49,277 bases of DNA from a virus. Taxonomy: Duplodnaviria; Heunggongvirae; Uroviricota; Caudoviricetes. Positions 8,745-49,050 of the stretch are shown here, one piece after another. Position 1 is the stretch's first letter, and the number at the start of each line of letters is the position of its first letter. The stretch is from the IMG/VR virus record IMGVR_UViG_2534682330_000007. One strand, given 5' to 3'. The position numbers were made by a program, and so were the translations under genes. The notes beneath the pieces are model-generated. The model was not told the origin of the DNA, searched no databases, and worked only from the letters and a program-made list of their open reading frames with translations.

Positions 8745-8939
8745 CTGTTCATATCCTCACAGATAAAAAATCGCCCTCACATTAGAGGGCAAAGAAGATT
8801 TCCAATAATCAGAACAAGTCGGCTCCTGTTTAGTTACGAGCGACATTGCTCCGTGTATTCACTCGTTGGAATGAATACACAGTGCTGTGTTTATTCTGTT
8901 GTTTATGCCAAAAATAAAGGCCGACTATGCGGCCTGAAA

Positions 8940-9389
8940 TTACTTAACCAATGATGCTGCATATTCGATAAGGTAAAGCTTTGGGGCCAGCCAAATTTTT
9001 AACCAAGTCATATTGGTTACTACACCAATAATAAAAATCCCCCACAGAGTCAAAACTCCAACCAATGGCATGATAAGAAGGTTAATATCTCCTTTGCTAT
9101 CCCAAACCATTGTCGGCCTGTATTTGGGATTTCCCCTCTCCCATGAGTATCCTTCATCACCGATTTTACCTGTCTCAACTCTTTGGCACTGCTTCTTCAT
9201 AAACCAGAAAACCAGTGGGATTGTTAGAATGGCTATTAATGTTTTAATCAGACTGTCAACCATATTCCATAGCAGCAACTGATGAACAACATCAGGAATC
9301 TGCGCTTGGCTGAATGAAACAGCCGCGTCTATTCCATTGCTGGCTTTTTGCAGTAGTTCTACGAGAATCTTGTTTGCTTGTTCTTCCAT
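8940..9389 (-). CDS. Hypothetical inner-membrane protein, 149 aa (insertion relative to lambda)
   Basis: Two long hydrophobic segments (LIKTLIAILTIPLVFWFM and INLLIMPLVGVLTLWGIFIIGVV); lies between ea10 and ral where lambda has only a short spacer. Confidence 0.6.
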   Translation of the reverse strand: MEEQANKILVELLQKASNGIDAAVSFSQAQIPDVVHQLLLWNMVDSLIKTLIAILTIPLVFWFMKKQCQRVETGKIGDEGYSWERGNPKYRPTMVWDSKGDINLLIMPLVGVLTLWGIFIIGVVTNMTWLKIWLAPKLYLIEYAASLVK

Positions 9390-9448
9390 ATATCCCCTTG
9401 ATTGTAATAAGCATGAAATTATTTACGGCCAAAAAATAAAGGCCACCA

Positions 9449-9649
9449 TCAGGCAGCCTTGTTATTCTGTTTACCAAGTTCTCTGGCAATCATTGCCGTC
9501 GTTCGTATTGCCCATTTATCGACATATTTCCCATCCTCCATTACAGGAAACATTTCTTCAGGCTTAACCATGCATTCCGATTGCAGCTTGCATCCATTGC
9601 ATCGCTCGAATTGTCCACACCATTGATTCTTATCAATAGTCGCAGTCAT
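9449..9649 (-). CDS. ral: Ral (restriction alleviation)
   Basis: 66 aa MTATIDKNQWCGQFERCNGCKLQSECMVKPEEMFPVMEDGKYVDKWAIRTTAMIARELGKQNNKAA matches lambda Ral. Confidence 0.9.
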   Translation of the reverse strand: MTATIDKNQWCGQFERCNGCKLQSECMVKPEEMFPVMEDGKYVDKWAIRTTAMIARELGKQNNKAA

Positions 9650-9777
9650 ACGGATAGTCCTGGTATTGTTCCATCACATCCTGAGGATGCTCTTCGAACT
9701 CTTCAAATTCTTCTTCCATATCTCACCTCAAATAAGTGGTTTGCTGCCTAATTTCATTTTCTGGCGACCAACACAAG

Positions 9778-10050
9778 TCATCTTGCTGTCAGCTGTTTGG
9801 ATTTCCTGTAGCCTGCCGCGTAAATGGCTACATTTGGAAGACAAGTTGAGCCTTCATATTTTCTGGTCAACGTTGTCAGTGTTATTACTTCTGCTCTCAT
9901 TACTGGTTTGCGTTTGCATTGTAAGACCACTCGTGAAGGGGTTGGCCTGTGTAGCTTGTCAGAGCTGATCGCCTCCTGACTTTGCAGGTTTGCACGACGA
10001 GCTCTACGGCGAGAAGCTGCGGTGCCTTTAAATTCTGTTTTTCTGGACAT
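9778..10050 (-). CDS. N-like transcription antiterminator (non-lambda type), about 91 aa
   Basis: ATG at 10050 preceded by GGAGG; N-terminal arginine-rich motif KGTAASRRRARRANLQ like the RNA-binding motif of N proteins; first gene downstream of pL and nutL. Confidence 0.7.
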   Translation of the reverse strand: MSRKTEFKGTAASRRRARRANLQSQEAISSDKLHRPTPSRVVLQCKRKPVMRAEVITLTTLTRKYEGSTCLPNVAIYAAGYRKSKQLTAR

Positions 10051-10148
10051 AGATTCCTCCCGAATAAACTTTGGCGATGCAATCTCGAAGCTCCTCCTGA
10101 GACGGTTGCTTCGGCATTGCATCCCACAGCTTATGTGGTTGGGTGGTC

Positions 10149-10195
10149 TGGCTTTTCAGCCACGTAGTCGAGTGTTCGACGTTGTTTAAAGAGCC
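10149..10195 (-). promoter_or_regulatory. nutL candidate: boxA (GGCTCTTTA) then 24 nt then boxB hairpin (TGGCT-GAAA-AGCCA)
   Basis: Read on the minus strand between pL and N; same boxA-24 nt-boxB architecture as the nutR candidate at 12106-12151. Confidence 0.55.
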
Positions 10196-10240
10196 TGCCA
10201 GTCTGTTCCATTTGGCTTCCAGCGTCCTGCTGATGACTAA

Positions 10241-10269
10241 ATAGTACGATATGTACTTTACTTGGTCAA
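10241..10269 (-). promoter_or_regulatory. pL candidate (-35 TTGACC, 17-bp spacer, -10 TACTAT) overlapped by palindromic operator AGTACGATATGTACT (10243-10257)
   Basis: Sigma-70-like hexamers with ideal spacing on the minus strand about 180 nt upstream of N; perfect 15-bp palindrome in the spacer. Confidence 0.55.
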
Positions 10270-10454
10270 TACGATTTGTTCTATTGAGGAGTGGTTTTTT
10301 ACAACGCTTTGTATTTTATAGTGTTGTTTTTTAGCGTGGGTGTATTGCCTCGGCGATGTAGGGAGAGATCAGAATTGCGTTGTTTAGTGAGTTGTATCTA
10401 TTAATTTTGAAATAAATACAATTGGTTATGCGTTTTTTGGGGGGCGTTAGGCAA

Positions 10455-10485
10455 AGAAAACCCGGCGCTGAGGCCGGGTTATGTA
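10455..10485 (-). terminator. Intrinsic terminator candidate ending the cI operon (CCCGGC-loop-GCCGGG then U-run)
   Basis: Minus-strand hairpin followed by TTTTCTTTG, located just 3' of the small ORF and before the pL/oL region. Confidence 0.5.
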
Positions 10486-10489
10486 GGCA

Positions 10490-10591
10490 TTATGCGGCTT
10501 TTTTGGTGTGTGCTGACGAGCGAGCCAGAATCTCGTTGATGAGAGATCTCAGGGTCATTGCATCTTTGTGCAGAGTGGACATGGTTTTCAT
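10490..10591 (-). CDS. Small ORF, 33 aa, with Shine-Dalgarno; below ORF-track cutoff
   Basis: Hand translation: MKTMSTLHKDAMTLRSLINEILARSSAHTKKAA; GAGG 7 nt upstream of ATG; followed directly by a terminator. Confidence 0.35.
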   Translation of the reverse strand: MKTMSTLHKDAMTLRSLINEILARSSAHTKKAA

Positions 10592-10660
10592 TGCGTTTCC
10601 TCGGTTTATTTTATGGTACTAGCCTAGTTCAAATAGACTATATGAAATCTTGATTTACTA

Positions 10661-11041
10661 TTAAGGCCATTGGGTTGGTGGAAGATCGTGGGTTTTTATC
10701 TGCGTATTTGCTTCCACACATTTATCATAGTCTAATTTCTCTACAGCAAGCAATAGTGATTCAGCATACATCAATCCTTGTTTGATGTTCATAACATTTA
10801 TGCTTGCACTTGCGGCATCCATATCCTTTGCTGTCTCTACCATGTGCTCAAAGCTTTGAGCAATAGAGTCAACACCGTTTTTCATCCTTGTAAACACTAA
10901 TTTTAGCTCATCAAGGCTTGGATTCGTTAGATCATACATCCCATGCATTCCATGGGCTTCGAATAACTCTGACAACGATCTAAGGGCGAAGTTCACAGAA
11001 TCAATAACTTGGTCGTACTTTTTCTTATCAAGATCATTCAT
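10661..11041 (-). CDS. Hypothetical protein, 126 aa, in the rexAB slot downstream of cI
   Basis: ORF track; same strand as cI, 66 bp downstream of the cI stop; no resemblance to RexA/RexB noticed. Confidence 0.65.
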   Translation of the reverse strand: MNDLDKKKYDQVIDSVNFALRSLSELFEAHGMHGMYDLTNPSLDELKLVFTRMKNGVDSIAQSFEHMVETAKDMDAASASINVMNIKQGLMYAESLLLAVEKLDYDKCVEANTQIKTHDLPPTQWP

Positions 11042-11107
11042 TAAAAATATAACCTTTTAACTAATTGATATTGCTGCATTTATATCAATATATGCATTTC
11101 ACATATA

Positions 11108-11767
11108 TCACCCAAACGTCTCTTCAGGCCACTGGCTAGCGATAACTTTCCCCACAACGGAACAACTCTCATTGCATGGGATCATTGGGTACTGTGGGTT
11201 TAGTGGTTGTAGAAACACCTGACCGCTATCCCTGATCAGTTTCTTGAAGGTAAACTCATCACCACCAAGTCTGGCTATGCAGAAATCGCCGGGCTCAACA
11301 GCTTGCTCTGGGTCAACCAGAATTAACATCCCGTCAGGAAAACTAGGTTTGGAACCTGTTGGTGCGGTCATTGAGTTACCTTCAACCTCAAGCCAGAATG
11401 CAGAGTCACTGGCTTTTTTGGTTGTGCTTACCAATCTCTCCGCATCGCCTTTGGTAAAGGTTCTGAGTTCTGGAGAGAACATCCCAGCCTGAACATGAGA
11501 AAAAACAGGGTACTCATATTGTTTTTTAACTGGGGCCGATGAGTATTCGCCAACAGGTGAAAATGTCCCGTCGTGGTTGAATGATATGTTATCAATACCA
11601 AGGTATTTAAACACCACACCAATATCACTAAGAGATGGATGACGAGATCCGCGCAACCAGTGTCCAATTCCACCCTGCGTCATACCTAGCTCTTCGGCTA
11701 ACTTCTCTTGAGTTATGCCGAGCTCTTTCATTCTGGATCTAGCCAGTTCATACCATTTCATTTTCAT
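11108..11767 (-). CDS. cI: CI repressor, hybrid: heterologous HTH N-terminal domain plus lambda-type C-terminal dimerisation/autocleavage domain
   Basis: C-terminal 130 aa ([28 protein letters not shown] ... SQWPEETFG) matches lambda CI; N-terminal HTH ([25 protein letters not shown]) does not; start taken at ATG 11767 (ATG 11761 also possible). Confidence 0.9.
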
Positions 11768-11879
11768 GTCCTTATTATTACGCTCTGTACTGGAACCATC
11801 CATGCACAATGTGTATTTTTTGCTTGTGTTTAAGAAGTACATATTGTATTTTTTTATTTGTGGTTACTATGGAGGGCAT
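11768..11879. promoter_or_regulatory. oR region with divergent pRM and pR and operator-like sites of form TAC-N-GTA (e.g. ATTACGCTCTGTACT 11778-11792, AGTACATATTGTATT 11836-11850)
   Basis: 112-bp cI-cro intergenic region; operator-like sequences resemble the oL palindrome; cI start has almost no leader, consistent with a pRM-type transcript. Confidence 0.55.
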
Positions 11880-12095
11880 ATGAGCAACCTACGAAAATAT
11901 CGAGAGTCACTGAATATCTCTCAAACAACACTTGCTAAGGCAGTTGGATGCACACAGGGAGCTATCGGACATTGGGAATCTGGTCGTCGCTTCCCAGACC
12001 TTAAAACATGCCGTGCTCTTGTTGCGTGTCTAAACAAGTTAGGCGCAAAAGTAAGTCTTGATGATGTGTTTCCGCCGGAGCACAAAGCTGCGTAA
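11880..12095 (+). CDS. cro: Cro-like repressor (HTH, non-lambda immunity), 71 aa
   Basis: ATG at 11880 after GGAGGG; HTH motif ISQTTLAKAVGCTQGAIGHWESG; first rightward gene of the immunity region. Confidence 0.85.
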   Translation: MSNLRKYRESLNISQTTLAKAVGCTQGAIGHWESGRRFPDLKTCRALVACLNKLGAKVSLDDVFPPEHKAA

Positions 12096-12105
12096 TAAGC
12101 GGAGC

Positions 12106-12151
12106 CGCTCTTTGTAACAACGGACATTCGTCCTACGTCGCTGAAAAGCGA
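12106..12151 (+). promoter_or_regulatory. nutR candidate: boxA CGCTCTTT then 24 nt then boxB hairpin TCGCT-GAAA-AGCGA
   Basis: Located between cro and cII; boxA matches the lambdoid consensus; GAAA-loop hairpin. Confidence 0.55.
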
Positions 12152-12236
12152 GTCCCAAGATATCTGACCAACTAAGGCCATATGCGTTTCCACGCATACC
12201 TTTCAACTAACTATTCACTATTGGAAATCTTAAGAA

Positions 12237-12533
12237 ATGGAACGAACAAGTTACAGCAAACTATCACAGCGTGACGTTGATCGCGCAGAAACAGATTTAC
12301 TCATCAACCTATCAACTCTTACCCAGCGCGGTCTGGCAAAGATGATTGGCTGTCATGAATCGAAGATAAGCAGAACGGACTGGAGATTTATTGCTTCGGT
12401 CTTGTGTGCTTTCGGAATGGCATCAGACATCAGTCCGATTAGCAGGGCTTTTAAGTATGCGCTTGCTGAAATCACAAAGAAAAAATCCCCGGCCGCCACC
12501 GAGGATTTTAAGCAAATTGATATGCAATTCTGA
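12237..12533 (+). CDS. cII: CII-like transcriptional activator
   Basis: 98 aa; C-terminus ITKKKSPAATEDFKQIDMQF resembles lambda CII C-terminus; position between cro and O. Confidence 0.85.
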   Translation: MERTSYSKLSQRDVDRAETDLLINLSTLTQRGLAKMIGCHESKISRTDWRFIASVLCAFGMASDISPISRAFKYALAEITKKKSPAATEDFKQIDMQF

Positions 12534-12565
12534 GGGAATTACTGGATCTATCAACAGGAGTCATT

Positions 12566-14523: not shown

Positions 14524-14964
14524 ATGAAAAAACTAACCTTTGAAATTCGATCTCCAGCACATCAGCAAAACGCTATTCACGCGGTACAGCAAATTCTTCC
14601 AGACCCAACCAAACCAATCGTAGTAACCATTCAGGAACGCAACCGCAGCTTAGACCAGAACCGAAAGCTATGGGCCTGCTTAGGTGACGTCTCTCGTCAG
14701 GTTGAATGGCATGGTCGCTGGCTGGATGCAGAAAGCTGGAAGTGTGTGTTTACCGCAGCATTAAAGCAGCAGGATGTTGTTCCTAACCTTGCCGGGAATG
14801 GCTTTGTGGTAATAGGCCAGTCAACCAGCAGGATGCGTGTAGGCGAATTTGCGGAGCTATTAGAGCTTATACAGGCATTCGGTACAGAGCGTGGCGTTAA
14901 GTGGTCAGACGAAGCGAGACTGGCTCTGGAGTGGAAAGCGAGATGGGGAGATCGGGCTGCATGA
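14524..14964 (+). CDS. ninB: NinB (recombination mediator), 146 aa
   Basis: ATG at 14524 gives MKKLTFEIRSPAHQQNAIHAVQQILPDPTKPIVVTIQERNRSLDQNRKLWACLGDVSRQVEWHG, matching lambda NinB. Confidence 0.95.
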   Translation: MKKLTFEIRSPAHQQNAIHAVQQILPDPTKPIVVTIQERNRSLDQNRKLWACLGDVSRQVEWHGRWLDAESWKCVFTAALKQQDVVPNLAGNGFVVIGQSTSRMRVGEFAELLELIQAFGTERGVKWSDEARLALEWKARWGDRAA

Positions 14965-15492
14965 CTATCAAATCAAATACGCCAGCACACGACAAGGACT
15001 GCTGGCAAACGAACGCCGCTTTGGCTTTTTGATGCACTGGATATTGAGTTTGGATTCTGGCTGGATTCGGCAGCGAGCGACAAAAATGCTCTGTGTGCTC
15101 ACTGGCTAACTGAGGCCGACGACGCGCTCAATTCTGAGTGGGTAAGCCACGGTGCAATCTGGAATAACCCACCGTACAGCAATATCAGGCCGTGGGTGGA
15201 AAAAGCTGCTGAGCAGTGCATACAACAGCAACAGACGGTAGTTATGCTTGTGCCAGAGGATATGTCAGTCGGATGGTTCAGCAAGGCTCTGGAGAGTGTC
15301 GACGAAGTTCGCATTATCACTGATGGACGGATTAATTTTATCGAACCATCGACAGGGCTGGAGAAGAAGGGAAACAGCAAAGGCTCCATGCTGCTGATTT
15401 GGCGACCGTTCATCAGTCCTCGACGGATGTTTACTACCGTATCCAAAGCGGCATTGATGGCGATCGGGCAGGGCGTCAGGAGGGCGGCATGA
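14961..15492 (+). pseudogene. Phage Dam-type DNA N6-adenine methyltransferase, disrupted by a +1 frameshift in a T5 run (15026-15030)
   Basis: ATG 14961 overlaps ninB stop (ATGA); frame 0 reads MTIKSNTPAHDKDCWQTNAALAF then stops at 15030-15032; the next frame continues DALDIEFGFWLDSAAS...IWNNPPYS (NPPY catalytic motif) to 15492; removing one T restores a single 177-codon ORF. Confidence 0.6.
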
Positions 15493-15665
15493 GGCGACAG
15501 CGACGAAGTTTCACCGACATCATCTGCGAAAACTGCAAATACCTTCCAACGAAACGCTCCAGAAATAAACGCAAGCCAATCCCAAAAGAATCTGACGTAA
15601 AAACCTTCAATTACACAGCTCACCTGTGGGATATCCGGTGGCTAAGATATCGTGCGAGGAAATGA
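15489..15665 (+). CDS. ninE: NinE-like small basic protein, 58 aa
   Basis: ATG 15489 overlapping the upstream stop; [58 protein letters not shown] resembles lambda NinE. Confidence 0.75.
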
Positions 15666-16009
15666 CAATGGATTATTCACAGTTAAGTGATTTTGAAATT
15701 AACAGAATGGTAGGAGACATAATTTTTAAAGGCCTTTGGGCAAGTAAACCGGAAACATCAGGGAATAACACCAACAAATGGTATTACGGAAATGCTGATA
15801 CAACTTTTGAGCCATTAAATCATTTGCCTGACTACTGCAATGATCCGAGCGCTTCATGGCCGATTATTGAGAAATACAGGATTTCTATCTTAGACCAGTT
15901 AACTGAATGGTGTGTGGATGCAAAAGGCGTAAGCCCAATATTTGATACCAGACCTCTCCGCGCCGCCATGATTGTCTTTCTCCTGATGCAGGAGGCCAAT
16001 AATGCTTAG
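15662..16009 (+). CDS. Nin-region protein, 115 aa (NinX/DUF2591-like; family call tentative)
   Basis: ATG 15662 overlapping ninE stop; [22 protein letters not shown] ... [12 protein letters not shown]. Confidence 0.55.
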
Positions 16010-16196
16010 CCCATCTCAATCCCTTCAATACCTGAAAGGAAGCATAGAGCGGGCTTCAATGTGCACAGAGTGGATTCTATCTAGGTTTAGCGCATACAGA
16101 AGATTGCCGGTAAAGGGCATGCCAAGCAAGTCGATGCTGCATATGCAAAAGAATGCGCGCTGGAAGGTATGGCGAGAACACAGGTTATCTGGCTGA
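16002..16196 (+). CDS. Small nin-region ORF, 64 aa (doubtful; an alternative frame is open for 42 codons up to the rusA start)
   Basis: ORF track; start overlaps the upstream stop; the region may be a mosaic junction, so the true reading frame is uncertain. Confidence 0.3.
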
Positions 16197-16215
16197 AAGA
16201 GGGGGTTATTAAGGC

Positions 16216-16578
16216 GTGAATACCTACAGCATCACATTACCCTGGCCTCCGAGCAATAATCGCTATTACCGCCATAATCGCGGGCGCACGCACGTCAGCG
16301 CAGAGGGGCAGGCATACCGCGATAACGTCGCCCGAATCATTAAAAACGCAATGCTGGATATCGGCCTGGCTATGCCTGTGAAAATCCGCATTGAGTGCCA
16401 CATGCCGGATCGCCGTCGCCGTGACCTGGATAATCTGCAAAAAGCCGCTTTTGACGCACTCACCAAAGCAGGTTTCTGGCTGGATGATGTTCAGGTCGTT
16501 GATTACCGTGTTGTGAAGATGCCCGTTACCAAAGGTGGGAAGCTGGAGCTGACCATCACCGAACTGGGGAATGAATGA
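16216..16578 (+). CDS. rusA: RusA Holliday-junction resolvase
   Basis: 120 aa [74 protein letters not shown] matches E. coli DLP12 RusA; GTG start. Confidence 0.92.
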
Positions 16579-16716: not shown

Positions 16717-16801
16717 AGTCAGAGATAACAATCAACTAATACTGTTTTGTTGATTTTTGCTTGTAATTGGCGTTCTGGTCTGAGTTTTGTGGAGTAAGTT
16801 G

Positions 16802-17185
16802 ATGCGTGATATTCAGATGGTTCTTGAGCGTTGGGGAGCGTGGGCGGCTAATAATCATGAAGATGTGACCTGGTCGTCCATTGCCGCCGGTTTTAAGGGA
16901 TTAATTCCTTCAAAAGTAAAATCTCGCCCACAATGTTGTGACGATGACGCGATGATCATTTGCGGGTGCATGGCCCGTCTGAAAAAGAACAACAGCGATT
17001 TGCACGATTTATTAGTAGATTATTATGTAGTCGGTATGACATTCATGTCACTGGCAGGTAAGCATTGCTGCTCTGATGGTTATATCGGGAAAAGGTTACA
17101 GAAGGCTGAGGGCATAATTGAAGGGATGTTAATGGCATTAGATATCCGGTTAGAGATGGATATCGTTGTTAATAACTCTAATTAA
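16802..17185 (+). CDS. Q: Late-gene antiterminator Q (phage 82 / DLP12 QuuD type), 127 aa
   Basis: ATG 16802; [75 protein letters not shown] as recalled for QuuD/Q82, unlike lambda Q. Confidence 0.9.
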
Positions 17186-17374: not shown

Positions 17375-18472
17375 TTAGAACTGGTAAACCAGACCTACAG
17401 CAACGATGTCATCAGTGCTTACACCGAGTGCTTTAGTGAAGTCATTTTTGTCAAGCAGGTTGATTTTGTAATCAACGAAAGTAGACATATTTTTGTTGAA
17501 GTAATAGGTTGCACCTACATCAACATATTTGACTAAGTCCTGATCGCCCCATACTCCAAGATCCTTACCTTTAGATTGCAGGTAAGCAACGGACGGACGC
17601 AGACCGAAATCGAACTGATATTGTGCAACAGCTTCGAAGTTTTGGGCTTTATTAGCAACGAAGTGATCAGCAAATACAGTCATATTCTGGGTTTCAGAAT
17701 AGGTAGTGGCCAGGTAAATGTTGTTAGCGTCATATTTCAGACCTGCGGCCCAAACTTCTGCATTTTTACCGGAAGCAAATACTTCAGGAAGAACTTTCCC
17801 TGCATTAACTTGAGTGTCGGTACGATCAGATTTTGCATAAGTTGCACCGATACCGAATCCTTCGTATTCATAGGTAGCAGAGAAACCGAAGCCATCACCG
17901 TTACCTTCGGTGTAGTTATCGAAATCGCTACGATCGTTTTTGCCTTGGTACTGAGCAGCAAAGTTCAGACCATCAACCAGGCCAAAGAAGTCGTTGTTAC
18001 GATAGGTTGCAACACCAGTGGTGCGACCAGTCATGAACACATCTGTTTGGGTCCAGGTATCGCCACCGAATTCTGGCAGAACGTCAGTCCACGCACCGAT
18101 GTCGTATGCTCCACCGTAGTTACGGCCGTAATCGATTGAGCCGTAGTCACCGAATTTCAGGCCTGCAAATGCAAGACGGGTTTTGTCTTTGGAGGAACCT
18201 TGAGATTCAGCGCGGTTGCCTTTGAATTCATATTCCCACTGACCGAAACCAGTCAGTTGATCGTTGATTTGGGTTTCACCTTTGAAGCCAAGACGGGCAT
18301 AAGTAGTATCACCATCATCTGCATCATTAGAGGAGAAGTAGTGCTTAGCATTAACTTTCCCGTACAGATCCAGCTTGTTACTGTCTTTATTATAAATTTC
18401 AGCTGCCTGAGCAGACATCGCCATCAGTACTGATGCAGCTACAGCAGAAATTGCCACTGTTAATTTTTTCAT
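17375..18472 (-). CDS. nmpC: Outer-membrane porin of the OmpC/OmpF family (phage Lc / NmpC type), intact 365 aa
   Basis: Signal peptide [23 protein letters not shown], porin beta-barrel signature with C-terminal ...VAVGLVYQF; same position and orientation as nmpC in DLP12 and lc in phage PA-2. Confidence 0.92.
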
Positions 18473-47724: not shown

Positions 47725-48306
47725 CTTTATCAATGACTTATCTCCCGACTTCCCGCCTTGCTTTTCCTAAACAGAACAATCGTAGAATATTCTTGAAGGG
47801 TTAGATCGTCACTGTTTTCTGTTCGATACTGTGACATTCAGCACTTGATTCGCTATGGATCTGACAGGAAGGTTTTGAGCGAAAATTTGCAGTTATTCAG
47901 TCGTTTTCTTATCGGTCACCATTATTCTTTTAGACATTGATCCTACAAAGCTGCCGCAAAGTTGGTGGTAGGAACTGAAGTTGCGTAGAGAAGGGGTCAA
48001 TACCCGGAGGCAAACATGGGCTGGCAAAAGTGTAGCGGTATTAGGCGCAGCTATTTAGCCTAGTTATGTTTTATGAAAACTTGATATCATATAAGTGTCT
48101 TACTTATTGGCTGTAAATAAGTTTTTCCTAAGGAATTGTTTCTTGAGTATCATTTGTAACTGTAACGGAATTTATAATCCTTTGCTTTATTGTTACGGTA
48201 TTTTTTATCACACCCTATTTTTAGTGGTTTTTTATACTGAAGTTTGGCAAAGTGAACTTTATATACATATACTTCATCCTGGTTTCAGTTAAATTGGGTG
48301 GATGAT

Positions 48307-49050
48307 ATGGCAACTACATGTTCAGTTATATTGATTTTGGAGTCCTTTGATGTTTATTTCGGAAAAGAGAGTGTGTTTCTGGAGAGAGGTTCATCTGTAC
48401 TTGTCGACTCTAGCTCTAGAGATTTTTTCCTGACATATCCTGAAAGAGTGATAGTGGCGGATTTTGGCGCTGAGTTTATTAGTCGCTATTTGAAAGCTAA
48501 TAACTTAAGGGATATTTCTGATTGTAGGGAATATCCATCTTATTTAAAAATAAACTTTGCTGACTTCAGTTTAATTAAAGGATTAATTAGTTGGGCTAAT
48601 CACTGTGCTGAATACATAGAAATTTTTGATGAGTCTATTGCTTTTACATGTCTCTCTGCATTTTCTTCTGAAAAACAATTTGGAGTATTTCTGTTTGAAT
48701 GTTTGAAAAGCACAGGGGCTAAAGTTAAAACGATTATTCATACGGATTTATCTGCACCATGGCGTCTTAAGGATATATCATCAAGATTATATCTCAGCGA
48801 AAGTTTACTAAAGAGGAAATTGAAAGAAGAGGGGGTATCATTCAGTAAGATCATACTTGATGAGAGGATGCAAATGGCTGAATATTTACTCTGCACTCGT
48901 TGTTATCCTATTAGTAAAGTAGCTAAGGTCTGTGGTTATGCCAGTGTCTCATACTTTACTTATGTATTTAGACGTTATTTTGGTGTTTCTCCAAGTCAAT
49001 ACTCTCAGAGGAGTTCAGAAAGTAAAATTCTTACTCACCAGGGAATCTGA
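48307..49050 (+). CDS. AraC/XylS-family transcriptional regulator (prophage cargo; AppY/PatE-like position)
   Basis: ATG 48307; C-terminal tandem HTH region (ISKVAKVCGYASVSYFTYVFRRYFGVSPSQY) typical of AraC family; AT-rich gene downstream of the tail fibre genes. Confidence 0.8.
   Translation: MATTCSVILILESFDVYFGKESVFLERGSSVLVDSSSRDFFLTYPERVIVADFGAEFISRYLKANNLRDISDCREYPSYLKINFADFSLIKGLISWANHCAEYIEIFDESIAFTCLSAFSSEKQFGVFLFECLKSTGAKVKTIIHTDLSAPWRLKDISSRLYLSESLLKRKLKEEGVSFSKIILDERMQMAEYLLCTRCYPISKVAKVCGYASVSYFTYVFRRYFGVSPSQYSQRSSESKILTHQGI

Follow-up and report, generated by a model that had tools for sequence, protein, structure and literature searches.

What interrupts the methyltransferase gene between ninB and ninE of this lambda-like prophage, and is the interruption the decay of a gene or a switch that turns it on and off? 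The locus belongs to the nin region, and the whole stretch of DNA that was read, 49,277 nt in length, is referred to here as the window. The window begins with ybhC and continues with int, the red genes, a cI-type S24 repressor, O, P, ren, ninB and the methyltransferase pseudogene, followed by ninE, ninX, rusA, Q, a porin gene, the lysis genes and the full lambda-type head and tail set. It is apparently a complete prophage at att-lambda. The porin gene (17375–18472, − strand), located between Q (16787–17185) and the lysis genes, codes for a Gram-negative porin of 365 aa (PF00267, 519 bits) and looks like a moron of the Lc/NmpC type. An AraC-family HTH regulator (PF00165/PF12833) is encoded at 48298–49050, past the tail-fibre genes and near the right end of the window. 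Just upstream of rusA, at 16130–16219, PGAP annotation of close relatives places an N-terminally truncated DUF1364-domain remnant, which is a further small decayed gene of the nin region.

The locus comprises the following features:

14524–14964, + strand: ninB, intact, encoding an Orf-family recombination mediator; identical copies in loci L001, L004 and L005 carry the annotation "recombination protein NinB."

14961–15492, + strand: pseudogene of a phage N6-adenine methyltransferase, 532 nt, defined by alignment with intact copies, by PGAP annotation of the identical sequence and by profile scores.

14961–15032, + strand: translatable 5' fragment of 23 aa, MTIKSNTPAHDKDCWQT followed by out-of-frame NAALAF and a stop (from translation).

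15008–15015, + strand: the lesion, a tandem duplication AACG/AACG (from alignment with the closest intact alleles).

15013–15492, + strand: 3' part of the gene in the shifted frame, corresponding to Thr17/Pro18 to Ala175 of the intact protein.

15026–15030, + strand: run of five T (T5), wild type, CTT TTT GAT being Leu21-Phe22-Asp23 of intact proteins (from alignment and IMG/VR scans).

15030–15032, + strand: premature TGA, the same bases straddling two codons (TTT GAT) in intact genes.

15166–15177, + strand: NPPY catalytic motif (motif IV of N6-adenine methyltransferases), out of reach of the start codon of the gene.

15478–15483, + strand: AGGAGG, a putative Shine-Dalgarno sequence read from the sequence, 5 nt before the ninE ATG.

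15489–15665, + strand: ninE, intact.

The initial annotation had recognized a phage Dam-family N6-adenine methyltransferase with an NPPY motif, frameshifted into two fragments, tightly packed between its neighbors and carrying a T5 run at 15026–15030, and these points are borne out. The ninB TGA overlaps the methyltransferase ATG (14961–14963) in an ATGA at 14961–14964, and the methyltransferase stop overlaps the ninE start in another at 15489–15492; dense packing of nin genes by ATGA overlaps is a known feature (PMC8022706). The zero frame from ATG 14961 reads MTIKSNTPAHDKDCWQTNAALAF and ends after 23 codons at TGA 15030–15032. The second frame is open from 14965 to TGA 15490–15492, reads ...RTPLWLFDALDIEFGF...IWNNPPYS...RRAA and encodes the remainder of the PF05869/TIGR01712 methyltransferase. 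An antisense ORF of 174 aa with a GTG start (15099–15623, − strand) starts within ninE and extends across the greater part of the methyltransferase gene; there is no indication that it is a real gene.

The family assignment rests on the protein reconstructed by removing the duplication. This protein matches PF05869 (Dam) with 218.9 bits against a cut-off of 28.1 (E = 4.5e-65; model positions 1–167 of 169) and the equivalog TIGR01712 with 266.1 bits against a cut-off of 97.05 (E = 8.3e-80; positions 1–165 of 165), values far beyond chance, and it also matches PHROG 111 "DNA methyltransferase" over the full length. The 98-aa ORF beginning at GTG 15196 alone scores 104.3 bits with PF05869 (model positions 77–167). 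A large protein collection contains 265 homologues at E <= 1e-5; those with an organism name come from Enterobacterales, and most among the matches listed are 175–185 aa long. The search of PDB by sequence gave zero significant matches. An AlphaFold model of an intact homologue (P0001; pLDDT 76, pTM 0.76) has its best PDB fold matches in PCIF1/CAPAM, METTL4, CamA, CcrM and Dam, all of them adenine-N6 methyltransferases, yet these matches (E >= 5.7e-3, TM about 0.5) are too weak for a closer structural assignment.

A small "phage N-6-adenine-methyltransferase" between ninB and ninE is carried by many lambdoid phages. In WP8-S18-CRE-02 (WP_001752315.1) and in phage Lambda_2E9 (VUD36522.1) it is the same gene, in the same ninB-ninE position and with the same ATGA junctions, and the WP8-S18-CRE-02 copy is nucleotide-identical to the window over 14900–15560 save 4 bases. 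In contrast to both, the window copy has an AACG duplication and cannot encode the 175-aa protein. The median pairwise dN/dS is about 0.07 among the 102 intact coding sequences (82 distinct) from the loci fetched, indicating strong purifying selection on intact alleles and thus a gene that is normally maintained. The T1 and HP1 Dam enzymes of the TIGR01712/PF05869 family methylate GATC. The lambdoid enzyme is probably Dam-like as well, and its activity would then plausibly be redundant in Dam+ E. coli; such redundancy would make loss of the gene tolerable in a prophage. A literature search for the target site of the lambdoid subfamily, or for experiments on it, returned only mentions in genome annotations. 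In T1-like phages, a longer TIGR01712/PF05869 protein is annotated as Dam (PMC6714547).

The nature of the lesion is revealed by comparison with the closest intact copies. Positions 14900–15560 were compared by megablast with 5426 complete E. coli genomes, of which 2148 contain the gene and 1535 a near-full-length copy. Identity of 100% over the 661 bases occurs in two records only. The next-best records, six complete genomes (H3–H8), match at 657 of 661 positions (99.4%), having four bases fewer and zero substitutions, and the phage records searched with the same segment give the same pattern. The 528-nt coding sequence is intact in these next-best records and annotated "phage N-6-adenine-methyltransferase." Aligned over 146 columns with phage Lambda_2E9 and an intact copy from an E. 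coli prophage, the window differs by one 4-bp gap and by nothing else: intact genes read GGCAAACGCCGC, the window reads GGCAAACGAACGCCGC. AACG has become AACGAACG at 15008–15015, within codons 16–18, which shifts the frame and gives a gene of 532 nt in place of the 528 nt (175 aa) of intact homologues. The duplication sits 11–18 bp upstream of the T5 run.

The reading frames of the window itself point to the same place. Its second frame reads ...R-T-P-L-W-L-F-D-A-L-D upstream of and across the T run, and since T-P-L-W-L-F is already encoded there ahead of the T run, the switch of frame must lie 5' of 15016. W15, Q16 and T17 are found in the frame of the start codon and P18 onward in the shifted frame, the W-Q-T-P...F motif thus not being present in one frame. 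The uninterrupted ORF of about 175–185 aa that characterizes the family is reduced to 23 codons in the window copy; an intact 175-aa ORF is present in 102 of about 117 sampled loci. Taken together, the window gene is, with a probability of about 0.93, a frameshifted copy of a lambdoid N6-adenine methyltransferase gene, recently inactivated and belonging to the dispensable accessory genes.

The single-base frameshift that the initial annotation had placed exactly at the T5 run gives way to this +4 duplication at 15008–15015: the identity and the broken state of the gene had been recognized correctly, but the lesion was misplaced and the T5 run over-read. The duplication most likely arose by replication slippage or misalignment. 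An origin as the footprint of an excised IS element is supported by nothing, as no IS remnant is present; AACG is not known to be a preferred IS target. The mutation is young, as PSJ-14, one of the two genomes with the identical sequence, and WP8-S18-CRE-02, with the intact allele, are separated by no more than four differences over 3.66 kb, of which the duplication is one.

According to the alternative first proposed for this locus, an extra T (T4 to T5 at 15026–15030) breaks the gene, the run acting as a slippage-prone on/off switch of an anti-restriction methylase. The zero frame does stop at the T run, and removal of one T yields a single ORF that still matches PF05869 with 207.3 bits. The same T5 run, however, is unchanged in intact genes and encodes there, in frame (CTT TTT GAT), L-F-D of the conserved WQTPLWLFDALD, in the protein context ...C-W-Q-T-P-L-W-L-F-D-A-L-D; the closest intact alleles differ from the window by AACG only. 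Exact-pattern scans found the T5 context in at least 120 IMG/VR viral contigs and the T4 and T6 contexts in none. The gene is also longer than intact copies by 4 nt, not by 1 nt. The T4 reconstruction is a protein of 176 aa in which TNAALAF replaces TPLWLF, so that a residue is gained and the invariant Pro18 is lost. In an alignment of 41 homologues (60–98% identity), W15, T17, P18, F22 and N68-P-P-Y71 are invariant or nearly so, the NPPY motif (N68-P-P-Y71) being invariant, and P18 is absent from the T4 reconstruction only. The scores of this reconstruction are lower than those of the duplication-removed protein by 11.6 bits in Pfam (207.3 vs. 218.9) and by 13.4 bits in NCBIfam (252.7 vs. 266.1), which speaks against T4 as the repaired state.

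Five T's are also short for a contingency tract. Phase-variable simple-sequence methyltransferase loci are similar in that a short repeat in the 5' part of the ORF alters the frame, but all that the window gene offers is a 4-nt unit present twice, or a homopolymer of 5 nt. An allele with three AACG copies was absent from the exact-pattern scan, and no polymorphism of tract length was found in relatives beyond the single rare allele with two AACG copies. With T5 invariant and T4 and T6 unseen, the on/off switch at the homopolymer is rejected, and its chance of being correct is close to nil. In a broken ORF, the site of the stop must be distinguished from the site of the damage; a homopolymer beside a premature stop invites the false reading of a slippage switch, which one alignment with an intact homologue corrects.

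The distribution of the duplication allele was determined with a 50-nt probe centered on the duplication, with which intact alleles are unable to seed a 28-mer. The probe matches at 100% in two of the 5426 complete E. coli genomes (i.e., in two of the 1535 with a near-full-length copy): PSJ-14, from human faeces in Ecuador, and EC529, from chicken meat in Viet Nam. None of the 50,697 phage records has the allele at 100%, the single match there being an intact-length variant. By an exact 25-mer scan, it was found in five IMG/VR isolate contigs and in no GTDB species representative. A minority of intact-length alleles in E. coli (H83–H92) seed a 28-mer match from window position 15010 (CGAACGCCGC...), which suggests a TGG CGA ACG (Q16R) variant adjoining the duplication site. 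The genes of PSJ-14 (AABJ92_RS15140) and EC529 (ACZ5CO_RS15635) are 100% identical to the window over 14900–15560, including the duplication, and PGAP labels this identical sequence "phage N-6-adenine-methyltransferase, frameshifted," a pseudogene of 532 nt. The frameshifted state is therefore already known from the RefSeq annotation of two genomes.

These carriers also bear on the possibility of a sequencing or assembly artefact, in which case the gene of the strain would really be intact. In draft assemblies a frameshift is frequently an error, and a sequencing error in the homopolymer was one of the three options left by the initial annotation. The change lies outside the homopolymer, however, and a 4-bp duplication in non-repetitive sequence is atypical of homopolymer errors. 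Seven other independent assemblies, two complete genomes sampled on different continents and five IMG isolate contigs, have the identical allele; the genome of the window is not among them, and the flank haplotypes around the allele differ. An artefact is accordingly most improbable. Of the three options, recent decay is the one that stands, while sequencing error and slippage switch both fall.

The flanks of the allele are variable. The match between the window and PSJ-14/EC529 is perfect only over 14665–15855, and the two differ at the ninB-proximal flank, in the immunity region (8895–12541) and in everything beyond about 17161, where the late region lies, while the att-lambda site and the block around the pseudogene are common to them; the case clearly illustrates lambdoid mosaicism, with an identical segment of 1.2–1.8 kb at its center. 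Three of the five IMG contigs are 99.6–99.8% identical to the window. The eight carriers represent at least four flank haplotypes, one of which has six substitutions in the 3' part of the gene, two of the six being shared with the intact Lambda_2E9 copy. The seven other assemblies and the several flank haplotypes show that the allele is genuine and inherited. The duplication is heritable, and recombination has probably carried it from one mosaic att-lambda prophage to another within a limited number of E. coli strains; repeated mutation of a slippage-prone site is the less likely route.

The prophages of PSJ-14 and EC529 differ from that of the window in their state of preservation: they contain IS1, IS3, IS66 and ISKox3 insertions and a rusA nonsense mutation, whereas the window has an apparently complete prophage with an intact rusA. 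In the window, rusA (16216–16578) has TGG for W88, with G at 16478. The equivalent position in PSJ-14, EC529 and two IMG contigs (L009 and L010) is A, giving TAG, which PGAP annotates as an "internal stop" (21229–21591 in L004/L005). The presence of the duplication together with an intact rusA in the window indicates that the methyltransferase and rusA pseudogene alleles are not always linked. In WP8-S18-CRE-02, whose methyltransferase gene is intact, the run of six A just after the ninB ATG is A5 (about position 1128 of L002, equivalent to window 14527). Here, in the neighboring ninB, a homopolymer has truly changed in length, and PGAP starts NinB farther downstream, giving a shorter protein.

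As judged from the sequence, translation from the normal start would yield only the 23-residue peptide, and active methyltransferase would not be made. Read from the normal ATG, the gene runs, beyond the duplication, into the TGA ending the wild-type T5 run, and everything conserved from Pro18 on, NPPY among it, is in the shifted frame. An internal restart giving a truncated active enzyme was considered and rejected: the downstream frame contains no ATG, GTG or TTG until GTG 15196, beyond NPPY, and without a start codon ahead of this motif a truncated enzyme would not be expected to be active. Downstream of the duplication, the gene is free of further damage, which fits a very recent event and would equally fit some residual use.

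Lambdoid early transcripts are N-antiterminated. Termination about 457 nt before ninE means that the ATGA coupling to this gene is lost; once it is lost, AGGAGG at 15478–15483 would allow independent initiation of ninE. With a strong Shine-Dalgarno sequence ahead of ninE and N antitermination, little polarity is expected, and the downstream nin genes are probably little affected.

Some methyltransferase could still be restored if the allele were leaky or regulated, either by a +1 shift at GCU UUU UGA U or by loss of one AACG copy through slippage; some cells of the lysogen, or a phage burst, would then differ in methylation state. The duplication by chance puts UUU-UGA in frame, and the frame required downstream is +1, as in the prfB (RF2) site, with which the window shares a pyrimidine slippery run, an in-frame TGA directly after it and an ORF continuing in +1 (GCT TTT TGA, 15024–15032). 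TTTTTGA is, moreover, a natural variant of the prfB slippery sequence, present in 21 genomes, but efficient prfB shifting needs a Shine-Dalgarno-like tract and a C after the stop (PMC12421855). The window lacks both: GCCGCTTTGGC precedes the slippery codon, with no SD-like purine tract at a distance of 3 nt, and the stop is followed by T (TGAT). The product of a +1 shift would contain TNAALAF in place of TPLWLF and lack the invariant Pro18. The site is also not conserved, the TGA being in frame only in the duplication allele and out of frame in all intact homologues, and a motif found solely in a rare duplication allele cannot have been selected. Programmed recoding is thus discarded, as stimulators are absent and the site is limited to the rare allele; the resemblance to the prfB site is a by-product of the upstream duplication. 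A two-copy tandem repeat could contract in principle, but no 3-copy AACG allele is known from the scan, and two copies are far below typical tetranucleotide contingency loci. Leaky or reverting expression is accordingly very unlikely.

The inactivation of a dispensable accessory gene, the reading preferred here, is accompanied by other knock-outs of the same methyltransferase. Among the sampled loci, two (L104 and L107) are inactivated by A5 becoming A6 in the run GACAAAAATG (equivalent to window 15082–15086), one (L035) by a nonsense mutation at codon 35 (TCG to TAG) and one (L037) by a nonsense mutation at codon 147 (CGA to TGA), while the gene of L040 has other sequence in place of its 3' part. 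These independent knock-outs fit a dispensable accessory gene that decays sporadically.

Alternatively, inactivation may have been selected, e.g., because methylation is costly or confers sensitivity to methylation-dependent restriction. The occurrence of at least four different independent lesions among about 117 sampled loci and the persistence of the duplication allele on several haplotypes would agree with adaptive loss. On the other hand, the allele is carried by a mere 2 of 1535 complete genomes with a near-full-length copy, intact alleles evolve at a dN/dS of 0.07 under strong purifying selection, and the PSJ-14 and EC529 prophages are full of IS elements and pseudogenes, so that general decay explains the loss without selection. 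Adaptive loss is unlikely, and is not needed to explain the data.

The finding has little biological weight, being one more case of an accessory prophage gene lost to a small duplication. For the organism, it means that the phage DNA of this strain should lack the adenine methylation added by the enzyme, which could slightly change its sensitivity to restriction in new hosts.
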